Positions 51,501 through 56,326 of a DNA stretch of 64,000 nt are shown here, piece by piece. Each line of letters opens with the position of its first letter. Position 1 is the stretch's first letter. Under the pieces are notes generated by a model. The model had not been told where the DNA came from, did not search any database, and was given only the letters and a program-made list of their open reading frames with translations. Source of the stretch: Bdellovibrionaceae bacterium UBA6776 (GTDB lineage: Bacteria > Bdellovibrionota > Bdellovibrionia > Bdellovibrionales > UBA1609); assembly GCA_002453155.1 (NCBI GenBank), contig DKGG01000011.1:32190-96189 (forward strand), in the 5' to 3' direction. Made by a program: the position numbers and the translations under genes.

Positions 51501-51730
51501 TTCGATTTCGTCCCATGCTTTTAACAGCAGCTGCGGTCGTGGTCGGAAGTTCCGTGATGCTTGCAGATCCCATCTTTCAAGGGTTGGCAGTCAGTCTGAT
51601 CTTTGGGGAAATTGCTGCGACCATTTTAAGTCGTTTTGCGGTGCCTATTCTTTACTACTGGTTTGTCGGAAAAACCCGTCAAGCTGTCATTCAATCTGAA
51701 AATTCTTTGAAGGAAGGAGAAATTTTATGA
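48548..51730 (+). CDS. RND efflux permease (HAE-1/AcrB-like)
   Basis: 12-TM/two-loop layout; TM4 motif SIGILVDDAIVVVENIER; start overlaps the TolC stop by 14 nt. Confidence 0.9.
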   Translation: MMQDNQLGFAGKLGKAFVHSKLTPVIAIASLLLGVMAVYLTPKEEEPQISVPMIDIRTPAPGFTPEETERKVTEPIERAVWGLDGVEYVYSSSQAHGSLVTVRFKVGEPMEPSLVKIHHKLMTIRHELPEASRNSIVKSFSIDDVPFLVLTFSSPEMDDFELRTAVAPLARELSSTPDLSKVEVLGGRKRAVRVIADPKKMERYGVSLLSIVQALKANDALAPAGKNWSDEEVVDVEVGGRLHSADEVQNLAIGQRAGRVVFVKDVADVVDGPEQLIRSSVLVEEGKKPVNAVSIVFSKRKGTNVVTLARQILNRAETFLKEQPAKLEMSVVRDYGSTASDKSNELIEHLLLATFSVAVLIAIFMGIRASLVVAIAIPVTLALTLAIYYFMGYTLNRVTLFALIFSIGILVDDAIVVVENIERHLKKNLKDSFVKVTIDAVSEVGNPTILATFTVIAAILPMAFVRGLMGPYMKPIPVGASFAMILSLIVAFVVTPWAAVKLLKRHEHKEEDHKISRLDQIYQRVMETLLSTKKAALGFGAFTIVLLLASMSLVAFKAVKVKMLPFDNKEEFQIVVDYPSTTSFEQGKTWSVELAEKILENENVEAVQVFAGEPAPFSFSGMVKHTFLRGADFQNDLHVVLSEKGHRDLSSHEVIESLRPLVKEFGESHKAITKVLEIPPGPPVLATMMAEVYGPSAKVRDQVAGEIEQIFANEPSVVDLDTTMRLGRPRRFYEYDQAQGGLLGTKSAELMVLGHLMFSETPVTTLAAVNAPEEVSVDLSLENSVRSSADPFQGLRVPSFETGTVEADKVLKAPREIPNKTLYRKNLKPVSYVMSELSGEEEAPVYGILKLAPQIKYPLQTAEVPWDTTSPVVKWDGEWFITYEVFRDLGGAFAVVMVLIYILVLGWFKSFTVPLIIMAPIPISLIGILPGHAILGSYFTATSMIGFIAGAGIIVRNSIILVDFIEHQLARGMGLKLSVISAGVLRFRPMLLTAAAVVVGSSVMLADPIFQGLAVSLIFGEIAATILSRFAVPILYYWFVGKTRQAVIQSENSLKEGEIL

Positions 51731-51921
51731 GCATTCAACATCAAATTCGTGCCTTTGCAGGAACCTTTGTATTAGCGAGTTTGGCTTTGGCCCATTATCA
51801 TTCGGAATATTGGCTGTTCTTTACAGCCTTTGTTGGATTCAATTTGTTGCAGTCCAGCTTCACAAATTTTTGCCCCTTGGAAATGATTTTAAGAAAGCTA
51901 CAGCCCGCGAAAGTAAATTGA
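51727..51921 (+). CDS. DUF2892 (YgaP C-terminal-like) two-TM protein
   Basis: IRAFAGTFVLASL..FVGFNLLQSSFTNFCP; ATGA overlap with the RND stop. Confidence 0.75.
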   Translation: MSIQHQIRAFAGTFVLASLALAHYHSEYWLFFTAFVGFNLLQSSFTNFCPLEMILRKLQPAKVN

Positions 51922-51945: not shown

Positions 51946-51972
51946 AGGGATCTGTTCCGTATACAGATCCCT
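51946..51972 (+). terminator. Terminator-like hairpin
   Basis: 10-bp stem AGGGATCTGT/ACAGATCCCT with a 7-nt loop; only a weak T tract follows. Confidence 0.45.
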
Positions 51973-52004
51973 GAATTTCTGAGGTTCTATGGTCTCCTCT
52001 AGTA

Positions 52005-52072
52005 AATACACCCATCCATGGCCTCACAAGAATTTTCCTTTCAGGAAAATCGCCTCTTGTTTCCATGAGGTC
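52005..52072 (+). repeat. Foldback-repeat family, copy 0 (core only)
   Basis: CCCATCCATGG..TTTTCC-TTTCA-GGAAAATCGC..GAGGTC. Confidence 0.75.
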
Positions 52073-52084
52073 TATTCCTGTGTG

Positions 52085-52191
52085 TAAGTTGCTATTTCCC
52101 AAATCCATATTTCATAGAACCGGACACACTCATCCATGAGTTCTTCCAGCATTTGCCTTTCAGGCAAAGCGCATCCCGCTTGGTAGAGGTC
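52085..52191 (+). repeat. Foldback-repeat family, copy 1 (left arm + core)
   Basis: The arm at 52085-52119 matches the copy-2 arm at 30/35 positions. The core matches the copy-2 core apart from about 8 substitutions. Confidence 0.8.
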
Positions 52192-52203
52192 GGTTTCTGC
52201 GCA

Positions 52204-52348
52204 TAAGTTCTTACTTCTCAAATCCATATTTTATAGAAGCGGACACACTCATCCATGAGTTCTTCCAGCATTTGCCCTCCGGGCAAAACGCATCCTGCTT
52301 GCTGGAGGTCCTTTTCTATAAAATATGGATTTGAGAAGTAAGAACTTA
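52204..52348 (+). repeat. Foldback-repeat family, copy 2 (complete: 35-bp perfect inverted arms + 75-nt core)
   Basis: 52204-52238 is the exact reverse complement of 52314-52348. Confidence 0.9.
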
Positions 52349-52360
52349 CACACAGCAGGA

Positions 52361-53161
52361 TCAGCCTTTGTGGAGGTTGTGAGAGGCACACAATACTTGA
52401 AGGTTGTTCCTTCGCTGGTCGCCACCAAGTCTGACTGGAAAAATGTGATCGATTTGTAAGAACTGTCGAGATTCGCAACCTGGATATTGGCATTTGTAGT
52501 CCGCTGTCGTTAACACATCATTTCGCAGGCGCTTGGAAATTTGACGGGGATTCTTTGATTTTGGTGCACAAAACTCTTTTGTCTCAGTGGGTTTTGGAGA
52601 TTTCCTCTGAATGTTTTCATAAGATTTGAGTTCTTTTTCAATCAAGTCCATCAATAGGCTTTCCGCATTGTGCTTATGAGACTTCAGTGCTTTCAATCTC
52701 TCTAATTTTTCATGCTGTTCATGGGACAGCTCCAGTCTCAAATGCACTTTGTCTAAATACTCGGTCTTTTTGATCTTTATGGTCGGTGTGGGTTTCAAAA
52801 ACATGGCCTTTACTTCACGAGAAGATTTATTTTCCATAGACTTCAAAACTTTTCTTTTTTCCGCCACCGGCTTTTTTCGAAGATGCTTGAAAGCAGTGGT
52901 CACTGCAGACAGGGTCAGGCTTCCCTGATCAATTTTCTGTTTGATCTCAGGAACTTCCTTGGCCAAGCGGACACAGGCTTGTCTTTGGTAGGCAGTGGCC
53001 TCGGAGTATCCAAGTCCGCGAACCAAGTAATCGAAAAGAGAATGGTGACCCATCTCTAGATACTTTCTGCAGTTTTCCATTTCTTGAAGCTTATTTAGAA
53101 TTTCAGAAGTGATTCGTTTTTCTTTCTGGCGCAGCTCTAGAAGCTCATCGTGAATTTTCAT
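52361..53161 (-). CDS. HNH endonuclease with a DUF222-like helical N-terminal region
   Basis: C-terminal CQYPGCESRQFLQIDHIFPVRLGGDQRRNNLQVLCASHNLHK (HNH motif). Confidence 0.85.
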   Translation of the reverse strand: MKIHDELLELRQKEKRITSEILNKLQEMENCRKYLEMGHHSLFDYLVRGLGYSEATAYQRQACVRLAKEVPEIKQKIDQGSLTLSAVTTAFKHLRKKPVAEKRKVLKSMENKSSREVKAMFLKPTPTIKIKKTEYLDKVHLRLELSHEQHEKLERLKALKSHKHNAESLLMDLIEKELKSYENIQRKSPKPTETKEFCAPKSKNPRQISKRLRNDVLTTADYKCQYPGCESRQFLQIDHIFPVRLGGDQRRNNLQVLCASHNLHKG

Positions 53162-53424
53162 AGGTCCTCTTTCTTTTGAAAGAACATTACCATGGGTTTT
53201 TATTTTCTAATTTTACGCCTTAGTTTTGTTTTTGAGGAAGCTTTTGCAGTCGAGAACATCCGTTCTTGGAGTTCAAATTTAACGAGTACAGTAAGCCCGA
53301 GAATTGTTTTAAAGATGATCCTACAAATGATTTCAATTTAACGATTCGCTTAAACGAAATCGAAAAAAACAACGTCAAACATAGTTTCTAAAAAGATTAA
53401 GTTTCGCCGCAACGTTTAGTAGGC

Positions 53425-54515
53425 AACTAAAACTTGAGTGTCCGTAACCAGTGCGACTCCTGCGGAATTGAAAAAGGGTCACCCCTGACCTATTAATCAA
53501 GTTCGCAAAAATTCAACTAAAAGGAGTTTGTACTATGGTTAAGTACTCAAGGGTGACTTACGAGCAAAGATGCCAGATCTACGTATTGTTGCAAGCAAAA
53601 ACCAAGGTTCTTGAAATTTCAAGGCTTGTTGGGGTTCACAAAAGTACAGTTTACAGGGAGTTGAGGCGAAATTCCTACGCGACTAAAAATCCATACTCAT
53701 CAGTACGGATGTATGAGCCCAATAAAGCTCATGCGATGGCTCGACGAAGGTTTTTAGATCGTTGTCATAGAAAACTGTCAGTTACAGGTCTTGTGGAGAC
53801 TCAGGTTATAAAGCTTTTGCAAAGGGGCTGGAGCCCTCAATTGATTGCCGGAAGAATAGGTCTTGAGACTCGCAAGAAGCTTTCTCATATGACGATCTAT
53901 CGGTTTACGAAAAAGAACGCTTATTTAAAAAGATACTTACATCACAAAGGTCGTAGATATCCCTACCGACCGACGAGCACCAATCAAGGTCCGAAGCCTA
54001 AGTGGTGGCGCTCTGTGCACGAGAGGCCCTTGGCTTGTCAGGAGAGATCTGAGCTTGGACACTGGGAGCGAGATTTGATGTATGCAAAAGATAGAGCTCC
54101 GATATTAGTCTGTACAGATCGAAAATCGAGATATGTAACATGCTTAGAGTTGAACACTTCAGGTTCACAGGAAACGCAAGAGAAGACAGCGATTTTGCTA
54201 AAACCATTTCCTGTTCACTCAGTGACCAATGATCAAGGAAGTGAATTTAAATCCAGAAATCCCATGGGGTGCCCCGTTTACTTTTGTGATCCCAGAGCAC
54301 CTAATCAAAGAGGTACGGTTGAGAACACAATAGGTGTGATGAGGCGATTTATAAAAAACTCCACAGATCTTAGTGAAGTGAACTTAGAACAAATTGAAAT
54401 ATGGATGAACTTGAGGCCTCGCAAGGTCCTTGACTACAAAACACCCTATGAGGTTATGTTCGAAGAATCAGTCGCACTGGTTGTGTGAAACTAAGAAACT
54501 TGAGTGTCCGTAACC
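53425..54515 (+). mobile_element. IS30-family insertion sequence (outer limits given; minimal element 53446-54482)
   Basis: 13-bp terminal inverted repeat AACCAGTGCGACT (53446-53458) / AGTCGCACTGGTT (54470-54482). A roughly 25-bp direct repeat AACTAA(G)AAACTTGAGTGTCCGTAACC lies at 53425-53449 and 54489-54515. Confidence 0.7.
53535..54488 (+). CDS. IS30-family DDE transposase
   Basis: N-terminal HTH (RCQIYVLLQAK..ISRLVGVHKSTVYRELRRN); catalytic motifs GHWERDLM, TNDQGSEF, QRGTVENTIG. Confidence 0.9.
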   Translation: MVKYSRVTYEQRCQIYVLLQAKTKVLEISRLVGVHKSTVYRELRRNSYATKNPYSSVRMYEPNKAHAMARRRFLDRCHRKLSVTGLVETQVIKLLQRGWSPQLIAGRIGLETRKKLSHMTIYRFTKKNAYLKRYLHHKGRRYPYRPTSTNQGPKPKWWRSVHERPLACQERSELGHWERDLMYAKDRAPILVCTDRKSRYVTCLELNTSGSQETQEKTAILLKPFPVHSVTNDQGSEFKSRNPMGCPVYFCDPRAPNQRGTVENTIGVMRRFIKNSTDLSEVNLEQIEIWMNLRPRKVLDYKTPYEVMFEESVALVV

Positions 54516-54564
54516 CGCACGCTTCGTTTGCCACCCCTCTTTCGAGGGTCAGGTTTCGAGTGTT

Positions 54565-54688
54565 TTTTCAAGATCTAAAACCCATAATTCCTGACCCGAC
54601 CGTCCATAGACTCACCATCGTTTTCCTTTCAGGAAAATCGCATCCTGCTCGATTGAGGTCTGTCACTATGGATTTTAGATCTTGAAAA
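54565..54688 (+). repeat. Foldback-repeat family, copy C (22-bp arms with 1 mismatch, 80-nt centre)
   Basis: Arms TTTTCAAGATCTAAAACCCATA / TATGGATTTTAGATCTTGAAAA; core CCGTCCATAG..TTTTCCTTTCAGGAAAATCGCATCCTGCT..GAGGTC. Confidence 0.8.
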
Positions 54689-54773
54689 TAGACATCCATG
54701 AAACTTCTGTTCAAAAAAAATATAGGCGCCTATAAAAGTGATGCTTTTGAAATGTTTCGGGGGATTCTGCTAT

Positions 54774-54889
54774 CAAGTTCAACGATCCACAGAATAGGAT
54801 CTCCGGCAAGCAGGATGCGTTTTGCCGAAGTGCAAATGCCGGAAGAGTTCATGGATGAACGTATCCTATTCTGTGGATCGTTGAACTTG
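54774..54889 (-). repeat. Foldback-repeat family, copy B (27-bp perfect arms, 62-nt core in inverted orientation)
   Basis: 54774-54800 is the exact reverse complement of 54863-54889. The reverse complement of the centre reads TTCATCCATGAACTCTTCCGGCATTTGCACTTCGGCAAAACGCATCCTGCTTGCCGGAG. Confidence 0.85.
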
Positions 54890-54920
54890 AAAGTAAGCTT
54901 CCTCGAAATCTAATGCTTGT

Positions 54921-54944
54921 GAGCCCATGGATGGGCGTGTTTAC
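54921..54944 (-). repeat. Partial repeat: inverted copy of the 5' end of copy 0
   Basis: The reverse complement GTAAACACGCCCATCCATGGGCTC matches 52001-52024 (GTAAATACACCCATCCATGGCCTC) at 21/24 positions. Confidence 0.6.
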
Positions 54945-55099: not shown

Positions 55100-56326
55100 T
55101 CAGTCTTGAAGCATCCGGTGGTGAAAACGTTTTTCTAGGGAAAGAATAAAAATGCAAATCAAACTGGCGCCGCCAAAACTCAATACCAAGGGGAGAATGC
55201 TCTCGTGATAGTACTTCCCAAGGAAAATTCCAATGGCCACAGATATTGTGCTTTGAACAAACCCAATCAAGGCAGACCCCACTCCGGCCACATGGCCTAA
55301 GGGCTCCATGGCCAGGGCGTTTAAATTCCCGAACAAAAATCCCACCGAAAAGAAAGTCAAAATCATATAGATCATAAAAACCATCAAAGGAGGTGGAGTC
55401 GAGGGAAGGTAATTGGTTAAATAGAGTGCAAAAAGATTAGAGATCAATGCCATCCACAAAAAAGCCCCAAGAATCAAACGCCGCATACCTAAAGCCATCA
55501 CCAGGCGGGAGTTGAAAAAAGAAGCCCCACCAATGGAAAGCGCTAGAATCCCAAACATCAGAGGAAAGAGCTTCTCCATATGAAAAATTCGCGAGAAAAT
55601 TTCTTGAGCAGAGCCCAGGTAACCCACAAAGATTCCAAATAAAATTCCCGAAACAATCATGCAAGAAACCGTCGTAGGTTGTCGAAAAGTCTCTTTAACT
55701 CCAAAAACTAACTGCTTGGCGGTGAACCCTCTTCTTAATCCCGGCGGTAGAGTTTCATGTTGGCGAATTGCAAACCACGCCCATAAACTCAAGGCGACCA
55801 CACACAAAAGAATAAAAATGGCTCTCCAATGAAAGAAATAAATCACTCCCTGACCCAGAGTGGGAGCCAATGCCGGCACCAAAATGAAAATGGTCATCAC
55901 CATAGAGGTGATCTGTGCCATCGCGTTCCCTTTGTACTCATCCCGAATCAATGCCAACGAAATGATTCGAGGAGCTGCTCCTCCAAAACCTTGAAGGAAT
56001 CGGCCGATGAGAAACCACTCAAAACTTTGAGTCATTCCCGCCAGAACGGAACCCATGGCAAAAATCGCAACGCCCCAATAGATGGGTGGCTTTCGGCCGA
56101 AGATGTCTGAAAGCTGACCAAAAATCAGCTGTCCAAATCCAAAACCCAAAAACAAAATGGCAATGACCATTTGCAATTGATCGGGTGTTTGAAGTCGAAA
56201 GTCTCTATGAATGGCGTTGAATGCAGGGAGCATGCTGTCAATGGACAGGGCAATCAATGATGTCATCAGCGCCATCAGAGTTACAAACTCGGGACGCGAC
56301 AATTTGGTGGGCGAATTCTGAGTCAA
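55100..56326 (-). CDS. MFS transporter, Bcr/CflA-like drug efflux
   Basis: 12 TM helices; N-terminal LIALSIDSMLPAF and GQL.DIFGRKP motifs. Confidence 0.9.
   Translation of the reverse strand: MTQNSPTKLSRPEFVTLMALMTSLIALSIDSMLPAFNAIHRDFRLQTPDQLQMVIAILFLGFGFGQLIFGQLSDIFGRKPPIYWGVAIFAMGSVLAGMTQSFEWFLIGRFLQGFGGAAPRIISLALIRDEYKGNAMAQITSMVMTIFILVPALAPTLGQGVIYFFHWRAIFILLCVVALSLWAWFAIRQHETLPPGLRRGFTAKQLVFGVKETFRQPTTVSCMIVSGILFGIFVGYLGSAQEIFSRIFHMEKLFPLMFGILALSIGGASFFNSRLVMALGMRRLILGAFLWMALISNLFALYLTNYLPSTPPPLMVFMIYMILTFFSVGFLFGNLNALAMEPLGHVAGVGSALIGFVQSTISVAIGIFLGKYYHESILPLVLSFGGASLICIFILSLEKRFHHRMLQD

Follow-up and report, generated by a model that had tools for sequence, protein, structure and literature searches.

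Hairpin-forming repeats at the ends of bacterial genes include the REP, BIME, and REPIN families, which are high-copy, extragenic sequences that occur as single units, as inverted pairs, or in mosaic and tandem arrays, and that can flank genes (PMC3116915). A REPIN combines conserved REP arms with a variable loop and carries a GTAG-type head, and the partner RAYT gene is single-copy. In MITEs, the terminal repeats are common to the copies and to a parent insertion sequence (IS). The insertion sequences IS1397 and ISKpn1 insert into REP loops, targeting palindromic repeats.

A second group of hairpins originates from copying. In E. coli, an interrupted palindrome with a nearby break gives rise to a hairpin and then to an inverted duplication, an outcome that SbcCD and RecA prevent (PMC3315005). 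Template switching creates and maintains hairpins (PMC8794818, PMC10710096) and homogenises and expands the arms of inverted repeats (PMC13100816), and the template-switch or quasi-palindrome process as such is known (PMC7202029, PMC8794818, PMC10710096, PMC13100816). These events are sporadic and concern arbitrary inverted repeats, in which one arm was already present and the second is a reverse-complemented copy of it.

Two multicopy systems involve HNH domains. The REP13E12 / DUF222-HNH proteins of Mycobacterium tuberculosis are stand-alone proteins with a helical N-terminal part and a C-terminal HNH domain, encoded in repeated DNA. In the HEARO / IscB omega-RNA systems, a structured non-coding element lies beside an HNH-domain gene. 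The foldback described here, located 3' of an HNH gene of Bdellovibrionaceae bacterium UBA6776, belongs to a family that lacks the defining features of REPINs, MITEs, intrinsic terminators, HEARO/IscB, and DUF222-HNH, and that has features of template-switch hairpins. A full-text literature search found no published description of such a repeat family.

The foldback downstream of the HNH gene

The window analyzed is a 64,000-nt stretch of contig C40 (window coordinate = contig coordinate minus 32189). The original prediction had described a 35-bp perfect inverted repeat enclosing a 75-nt core and beginning 12 nt past the stop codon of an HNH gene, and all of this was exact on recheck. Positions 52204-52238 (TAAGTTCTTACTTCTCAAATCCATATTTTATAGAA) and 52314-52348 are exact reverse complements around the 75-nt centre 52239-52313, and the stop codon lies at 52361-52363 on the minus strand. 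The inverted repeat widens to 48-nt arms with 90% complementarity (Table 1), which leaves 5 nt between the extended arm and the stop codon. The left arm of an upstream "copy 1", said to carry five mismatches, was also present; 5 of 35 positions differ over 52085-52119, and when extended to 48 nt this arm matches the left arm at 81% and can pair with the right one at 85%.

RNA folding of the 176-nt foldback stretch gave -91.8 kcal/mol, compared with -41.0 +/- 4.1 kcal/mol for 200 shuffles (z = -12.3), none of which equaled it. The 35-bp perfect stem is typical of the repeat family to which it belongs; in other copies of the genome, perfect runs reach 37, 35, 33, 33, 32, and 31 bp. A canonical terminator scan detected nothing resembling a terminator on either strand of 52197-52355, and a T-run 3' of the stem was absent at the HNH foldback and after the stems of single copies. 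An intrinsic terminator was ruled out as the identity of the HNH foldback, since its stem has no trailing T-run. Ordinary terminators occur in this genome, for example behind the HNH paralogue C32 and behind the ygaP-like gene; the short hairpin after the latter is probably that gene's own terminator.

The foldback is part of a nest of repeats (Table 1). According to the coverage profile, similarity to other genomic copies begins at ~51975-51990, which marks the left border. Three cores (copies 0, 1, and 2) follow in direct orientation; arm copy 1 and core copy 1 together form a 119-nt tandem unit (direct repeat D1, period 119 nt), and core copy 2 scored 96.4 bits against the covariance model R1. 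An IS30-family insertion separates the leader of the HNH gene from the foldbacks upstream of it; it is single-copy by tblastn, and repeat coverage is zero over ~53500-54500. A 20-nt direct repeat around IS30 is not supported as a target duplication, because its left copy belongs to a repeated module extending ~12 nt past it and is therefore not adjacent to the IS30 end. Flank searches for an empty site found no gene order around the window locus shared with the relatives G001 or G019.

Table 1. Features of the repeat nest around the HNH gene, in window coordinates.
Feature	Position	Strand	Basis and remarks
Short G+C-rich hairpin	51947..51971	+	Inverted repeat I10; just after the ygaP-like gene 51727-51921 (PF11127)
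Core copy 0, model positions 4-68	52008..52072	+	nhmmer G000:C40:84197-84261
Arm copy 1 (arm type 1), direct orientation	52078..52125	+	Inverted repeat I4
Core copy 1	52123..52191	+	nhmmer C40:84312-84380
Left arm of the HNH foldback	52197..52244	+	Inverted repeat I1; perfect part 52204-52238
Core copy 2, three hairpins, closing stem GAC/GTC	52242..52310	+	nhmmer C40:84431-84499
Right arm of the HNH foldback	52308..52355	+	Perfect part 52314-52348; 5 nt short of the HNH stop
HNH nuclease gene, 266 aa	52361..53161	-	PF01844; HNH domain at residues 224-265
Leader of the HNH cassette	53162..53461	-	Similarity among paralogue loci
IS30-family insertion, single copy	53462..54495	+	NCBIfam NF033563, 182.7 bits; transposase ORF 53535-54488; borders approximate
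Foldback, different arm type (arm cluster 2)	54560..54693	+	Inverted repeat I7; nhmmer C40:86782-86849; arms 54560-54596 / 54657-54693, core 54593-54660
Foldback, third arm type	54755..54908	-	Inverted repeat I5; nhmmer C40:87054-86988; arms 54755-54800 / 54863-54908 with a 28-bp perfect run, core 54799-54865 in opposite orientation
Partial core, model positions 2-32	54910..54940	-	nhmmer C40:87129-87099; closes the nest on the right; the stop codon of the MFS gene 55100-56326 (-), Pfam MFS_1, lies ~160 nt further on

The core is a dispersed and structured repeat

Iterated nhmmer searches from the 75-nt centre recovered at least 126 copies of a ~68-nt core in the 2.9-Mb genome. The assembly consists of 69 contigs, and many cores lie at contig ends because the repeats break contigs; the counts are thus lower bounds. 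With ORFs called crudely as the longest ones of at least 100 aa, 102 of the 126 cores lie outside them, though such ORFs span 90% of the genome. In being high-copy, extragenic, hairpin-forming, and located at gene ends, the family resembles REP, BIME, and REPIN sequences, and its single, inverted-pair, and mosaic or tandem arrangements and its flanking of genes are also like theirs (PMC3116915).

Besides its closing stem, the core consensus (CAGACACGCCCATCCATGGGCTCACCAGCATTTGCCCTTCGGGCAAAACGCATCCTGCTTGCTGGAGGTCT) has one hairpin and, after it, another stem that encloses two more. When 42 sequences from two genomes were aligned, 94.6% of the cells were paired, and 17 of the 25 pairs had changed on both sides; none of 500 shuffles was as good, and slid controls were at most 50% paired. 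The core was detected in 19 genomes, from 10 of 35 genera, when covariance model R1 was run with strict filters, scoring at most 44 candidates per genome, on 109 members of the bacterial family. Phage and plasmid collections gave no match to the core. Twelve metagenome contigs with the core pattern were 99.97-100% identical to this genome and contained no informative variants; through them, several foldback/HNH loci were reproducible in separately deposited assemblies. A unique flank pattern gave no match in metagenomes.

Rfam searches of the window and 13 related loci at permissive thresholds returned only spurious miRNA-precursor matches, which came from the long stems. A self-cleaving ribozyme or a tRNA-like core was rejected on the lack of an Rfam match and of a hammerhead core motif by eye.

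At one locus that is orthologous between two species, their cores are 76% identical, compared with 75% for the flanking coding gene. The core also has invariant unpaired bases, namely a TCC loop and GAGG. Because the core is conserved like coding DNA and keeps these unpaired bases, a sequence-specific partner or function is needed, and a pure mutational by-product does not explain the conservation. Two candidate partners were rejected, since their presence does not track the cores: a reverse transcriptase, and the Y1 transposase (PF01797), with 14 matches in this genome and none in G019, which has at least 20 cores.

Arm sequences differ between loci and can include host gene ends

Long inverted repeats flank 76 of the 104 full-length cores in this genome. 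By sequence, the arms of these 76 elements form 37 unrelated clusters, of which 25 are singletons, and the arm type of the window has 13 members. The same core-arm architecture occurs in G019 and, with arms of 25-191 nt, in seven further genomes, and held wherever copies were fetched. All 20 cores found in G019 have arms; the perfect ones measure 104, 96, 83, 66, 54, 52, and 51 nt, and all differ in sequence. In G097, arms reach 191, 159, and 90 nt.

Two cases checked in these relatives reveal the source of an arm. At locus L058 of G019, the left arm opens with GCCTTCGACCCCAAGATGAAGAAATAA, which encodes the end of an ABC-transporter permease (...AFDPKMKK*), and a perfect 83-nt inverted copy, codons and stop included, lies across the core. 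The orthologous permease of the genome studied here (G000) is 62% identical and ends in ...AIDPKSK*, with no core alongside. At locus L067 of G097, the final 28 nt of rpoN lie within an arm of ~191 nt, the protein ending in ...ARRTVAKYRDVLGILPSSQRKKFF (...SSQRKKFF); the rpoN orthologue in G000 is 82% identical and ends in ...SSKRKKLF. A transposon cannot carry the conserved codons of a neighbor, and therefore one arm is native and the other its inverted duplicate. Host gene ends thus lie within arms in the relatives, with inverted copies beyond the core.

The arms also evolve in concert. A foldback lies between the same two genes in two species of one genus (G097 L069 and G095 L066). Its arms are 38-46% identical between the species, and within each species 86/90 and 47/50 positions pair (94-96%). 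In the arm subfamily of the window, mirrored derived bases average 2.8 per element, compared with 1.4 in mismatched-element controls, and the window copy has three; this signal is modest, at only twice the control.

These observations bear on the idea that the units are MITE- or REPIN-type elements, whose arms would be terminal inverted repeats and which would be moved in trans by a transposase such as Y1 (RAYT/IS200-like). High copy number, intergenic location, and hairpin shape are consistent with it, and one of the PF01797 matches lies directly beside a single foldback on contig C36. As many as 13 copies can have an arm type in common, which implies that duplication has sometimes involved whole units or longer segments. 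However, conservation is the reverse of that in MITEs and REPINs: it concerns the centre, and the ends differ from copy to copy and are partly host-derived. Neither a REP-like GTAG head nor a parent IS with the core was found; the sole transposase of the nest belongs to the single-copy, unrelated IS30, which was inserted secondarily. The Y1 genes do not track the foldback family, as the cores of G019 illustrate, and the flanked gene, an HNH nuclease with ~30 old copies, differs from a single-copy RAYT. We therefore regard a MITE- or REPIN-type origin as very unlikely. The arms have not travelled between loci as the ends of a transposon, for they are copy-specific, can include host codons, and stay complementary despite drift; the suggestion in the original prediction that the foldback is a transposition end is not supported in its classical sense for the same reason, since arms vary from copy to copy and can consist of host gene ends.

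Foldbacks lie at gene 3' ends and probably pair as DNA

The foldback units are located at gene 3' ends. Single foldbacks lie between convergent genes in nine cases, between tandem genes in six, and between divergent genes in none, and arms intrude by more than 16 nt into coding sequence in 3 of 72 cases. Overall, 35% of arms start at most 15 nt from an incoming stop codon, as against 24% by permutation (P ~0.005); the enrichment is not significant in this genome alone. Arm length and distance to the stop codon are not correlated. A strict rule by which the arm spans from core to stop codon was rejected on these grounds: the enrichment is modest, length does not follow distance, and the result is null in this genome alone.

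Location at gene ends and avoidance of coding sequence would be expected of a selected RNA element, such as a bidirectional terminator in the 3' UTR, an exonuclease barrier, an RNase III site, or a small RNA, in which folding itself is under selection. The conservation of the core at the orthologous locus, its strong covariation, and the extreme fold stability are further points in favor of this reading. Liang, Rudd and Deutscher are said to have found in 2015 that REP hairpins of E. coli located at most ~15 nt from a stop codon lower translation. The strand-specific predictions of an RNA function, however, gave null results in both tests. Relative to the incoming gene, the core has the same orientation in 22 cases and the opposite in 20, that is, its orientation is random; and relative to the sense strand of the sole incoming gene, arm mismatches are balanced, with 53 G-T versus 46 A-C. 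G-U pairs are near absent from the core (~1% of core pair cells). Together, the lack of a G-U bias and the random core orientation point to a DNA-level process, template switching or fold-back synthesis, and the pairing of the foldbacks looks like a property of DNA rather than of RNA. The RNA reading is further weakened by the missing T-run after the stem, while the genome has canonical terminators elsewhere, and by the absence of an Rfam family. Folding selection alone would also leave unexplained the perfect arms of 83-104 nt that contain a neighbor's codons. A selected RNA element consequently seems unlikely to us.

The HNH gene family is associated with cores but separable from them

The protein encoded 5 nt from the extended arm has an HNH domain at its C-terminus (PF01844; score 25.4 bits, cut-off 21.4), and its gene has ~30 paralogue loci in the genome, with protein identities of 68-90%. 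Twenty-one of these loci are matched over the full length without an internal stop; one of the 21, C35:5063, lacks a stop codon directly after the aligned end. Among 16 ungapped copies (113 usable pairs), the median dS was 1.26 and dN/dS 0.09. These values mark the copies as old, with purifying selection acting on each of them, which sets them apart from a recent IS burst. Searches of genome contigs with the HNH protein and alignment found only relatives of 43-48% identity, in MAGs of Bdellovibrionales and Pseudobdellovibrionaceae.

In its stand-alone form, C-terminal HNH domain, helical N-terminal part, and multicopy occurrence in repeated DNA, the protein resembles REP13E12 / DUF222-HNH. It differs in that PF02720 (DUF222) was absent, at E up to 1, from all eight paralogues searched, in each of which the HNH domain was present, and in being shorter, at 266 aa, old, and under purifying selection. 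The likeness to HEARO / IscB lies in a structured non-coding element beside a multicopy HNH-domain gene. Unlike that system, the element has no Rfam match, lies 3' of the gene in either orientation, and also occurs without the gene; the protein scored 31.8 bits against NCBIfam guided_IscB (cut-off 175) and has no RuvC part.

Similarity among the HNH loci defines a cassette made of a leader of ~55 or ~265 nt and the ORF. The proximal ~55 nt of the leader, with a promoter-like TGGTAATGT and the ribosome-binding site AAGAGGA, are common to nearly all paralogues, and the part out to about -265/-300 is common to one class of 7-12 copies. At the other end, similarity stops 0-5 nt past the stop codon, and the downstream sequences belong to several unrelated classes.

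The original prediction had linked the foldback to the HNH gene, as a recognition site for the nuclease or an mRNA 3' stabilizer, and had named the absence of foldbacks from other copies of the gene as evidence against the link. Paralogues were not generally devoid of them: a core lies within 500 nt of 25 of the 30 HNH loci, compared with 4.3% of all ORFs, and five loci are without one. This association thus stands, whereas its exclusiveness does not, the foldback being one member of a family of ~126 copies that is not HNH-specific.

An element dedicated to the HNH gene, forming one unit with it as a homing, nicking, or recognition site or as a private 3' stabilizer, would account for this enrichment and for several other observations. 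At five or more loci, among them the window locus and four other HNH paralogues with the same arm type, the arm starts in the same register a few nt past the stop codon. Core clusters that adjoin HNH genes are larger (mean 2.1 versus 1.5 cores; one-sided Mann-Whitney P = 0.009), and the cassette often has cores on both flanks. Against it, of the core clusters lying over 1.5 kb from a contig end, 16 are more than 1 kb away from any HNH gene; most of these are single foldbacks behind unrelated genes. G019, with the longest and most perfect arms, has a single distant HNH homologue (28-34%) without a core nearby; G020 has 12 cores and no HNH match, and G014 has 17 HNH matches and no core. The end of cassette similarity at the stop codon and the unrelated downstream classes point in the same direction, as do individual paralogues: C32 has an ordinary terminator in place of the foldback, and C56 and C44, the closest paralogues of the window gene (88%), have a different arm type, so the HNH gene and the hairpin have not descended together. 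An HNH-dedicated element is accordingly quite unlikely. The association in this genome is real but not obligatory, and the two families are separable. The foldback is not a dedicated HNH signal; the most it offers the HNH mRNA is a very stable 3' hairpin of a generic kind, 5-12 nt past the stop codon.

Because the right arm has the same register as at the four other paralogues, it would be the likelier template of the window foldback. Other mobile DNA also lies beside foldbacks, the single-copy IS30 here and an IS3-family element in G019. This gathering of mobile DNA (HNH cassettes included) at hairpin repeats resembles the targeting by IS1397 and ISKpn1; the insertions differ in lying beside complete foldbacks and not in loops, and targeting would here be deduced from co-location alone.

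Discussion

From the sequence comparisons, we conclude with moderate confidence that the HNH foldback is a member of a dispersed non-coding family, the arms of which were probably made or kept by DNA-level copying around a conserved core. The elements of Bdellovibrio-like bacteria consist of a ~70-nt core with three small hairpins and a short closing stem, and of long locus-specific inverted arms around it; the unit in the window measures 145-159 nt. The closing stem may allow a nascent or resected strand to snap back on itself, and DNA synthesis would then use one flank as template and place an inverted copy of it across the core. Repeated copying events, by template switching, quasi-palindrome correction, or fold-back priming, could homogenize and lengthen the arms, and the 35-bp perfect stem of the window would be the residue of such homogenization.

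The likeness to template-switch hairpins is close. In the relatives, one arm corresponds to sequence that was there before and the other to an inverted copy of it; arms would be homogenized and expanded, and the signature is DNA-level without G-U tolerance. Dependence on the status of a hairpin nuclease, a feature of template-switch and palindrome-duplication systems, would be a further likeness. SbcD (TIGR00619) was not detected in 10 of 10 genomes of the family and matched in 13 of 14 control genomes. In a lineage without a detectable SbcD hairpin nuclease, long hairpins could persist; the absence is permissive at best, because SbcD is equally undetected in relatives without cores. Unlike the sporadic events at arbitrary inverted repeats, the foldbacks have a conserved 70-nt core at the centre of more than 100 loci and in 10 genera, and the core is kept at orthologous sites, as if it nucleated the process.

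In this genome, the foldbacks would have become preferred neighbors of a separate, old, multicopy HNH cassette. They may act as landing sites or as portable homology for inserting DNA such as HNH cassettes and IS elements; alternatively, breaks at HNH cassettes may feed fold-back copying and so produce the co-location. That the core is a distinct element which brings no terminal repeats but nucleates fold-back synthesis and so makes its long stem from adjacent host DNA, with the foldbacks serving the spread of HNH and IS elements as landing pads or portable homology, is a tentative proposal. Its further parts, that the element is maintained at gene 3' ends in at least 10 genera and that core conservation reflects a protein partner or a host function, are offered jointly with it and just as tentatively.

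The analysis separates two things that resemble one system, a foldback repeat that is family-wide and an HNH family that is old, intact, and multicopy. The foldback repeat is an unusual genome repeat of Bdellovibrio-like bacteria and not a private signal of the HNH gene. For annotation, foldback repeats account for many contig breaks in assemblies of this group, and long palindromes may be tolerated in these genomes because SbcD is apparently lacking throughout the bacterial family, an explanation that can be tested. If the proposed copying is correct, the family would be a concrete, countable bacterial example of long perfect hairpins formed by copying and not by compensatory point mutation, with over 100 loci in a single genome and an occurrence in 19 genomes. 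"Covariation" in such elements would then be no proof of a functional RNA, and intergenic structure at gene ends could arise quickly.

A second palindrome family and candidate transposase partners

The genome of UBA6776 (G000) contains a second palindrome family, unrelated to the foldbacks formed by the conserved core and its long inverted arms. It comprises about 30 copies of a perfect palindrome of about 75 nt, CGCCAAAAGGTACCTGCTTCCTTTTCCGATATGC-nnn-GCATATCGGAAAAGGAAGCAGGTACCTTTTGGCG, in which a loop of 1-3 nt separates arms of 30-38 nt; a search of the contig carrying the window (C40) found no perfect copy. Six-frame searches of the 2.9-Mb genome with PF01797, the Y1 transposase family, gave 14 matches in open frames of 150-250 aa, and these proteins may be the RAYT/IS200-like partners of the second family. 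On contig C36, one PF01797 match directly adjoined a single foldback.

SbcD, the hairpin nuclease subunit, was sought with a single model, TIGR00619, which matched none of ten genomes of the bacterial family (G000, G002, G004, G008, G009, G012, G019, G020, G095, and G097); the same search matched 13 of 14 control genomes.

Insertions and decayed copies around the HNH genes

The single-copy IS30-family transposase gene in the window is flanked on both sides by a perfect 20-nt direct repeat, AAACTTGAGTGTCCGTAACC. Because the left copy is part of the repeated leader module, which extends about 12 nt beyond it, this repeat is unlikely to be a simple target duplication. Elsewhere in the genome, microsatellite-like runs, (GAGAACAA)n and (CAAACAA)n, take the place of the usual leader ahead of two HNH paralogues. 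Alongside the intact paralogues there are two decayed copies: one is split into two frames and contains a TAA; the second, a 3' fragment of 70 codons, has three stops and faces an intact paralogue head-to-head.

Coordinates of features in the window, in contigs (C) of UBA6776 (G000), and in the related genome G019
Feature	Location	Remark
IS30-family transposase gene	window 53535-54488	single copy
20-nt direct repeat	window 53430-53449; 54496-54515	either side of IS30-family gene
PF01797 matches (examples)	G000:C66:50047-50313; C46:20449-20670; C36:441-716	
Second palindrome family (examples outside the window)	G000:C38:87936; C2:588; C44:36681; C54:24410; C55:43505; C59:78700; C59:80529	
Microsatellite-like runs before HNH paralogues	G000:C53:1-76; C13:23553-23665	extend to contig ends
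Decayed HNH copies	G000:C53:131710-132508; C44:11689-11898	
Foldback-bracketed segment	~1267-5093 of L056 (G019:C11:182000-188500)	

Foldback-bracketed loci in a related genome

At locus L056 of G019, another member of the family, two foldbacks of one arm family, inverted relative to each other, enclose 3.7 kb. Within this stretch are a transposase of the IS3 family (rve, HTH_21) and a pair of Rhs/YD-shell C-terminal fragments with small ORFs downstream. Locus L055 contains a 0.5-kb version of this arrangement.

Metagenome contigs matching the assembly

Twelve public marine metagenome contigs (L084-L095; MDTD, MDTC, MDSW, and CEWK records) were 99.97-100% identical to contigs of UBA6776. Some of them span contig ends, and MDTD01023216.1 links C27, C6, and C19; the UBA6776 assembly could therefore be improved across its repeats using these metagenome contigs.
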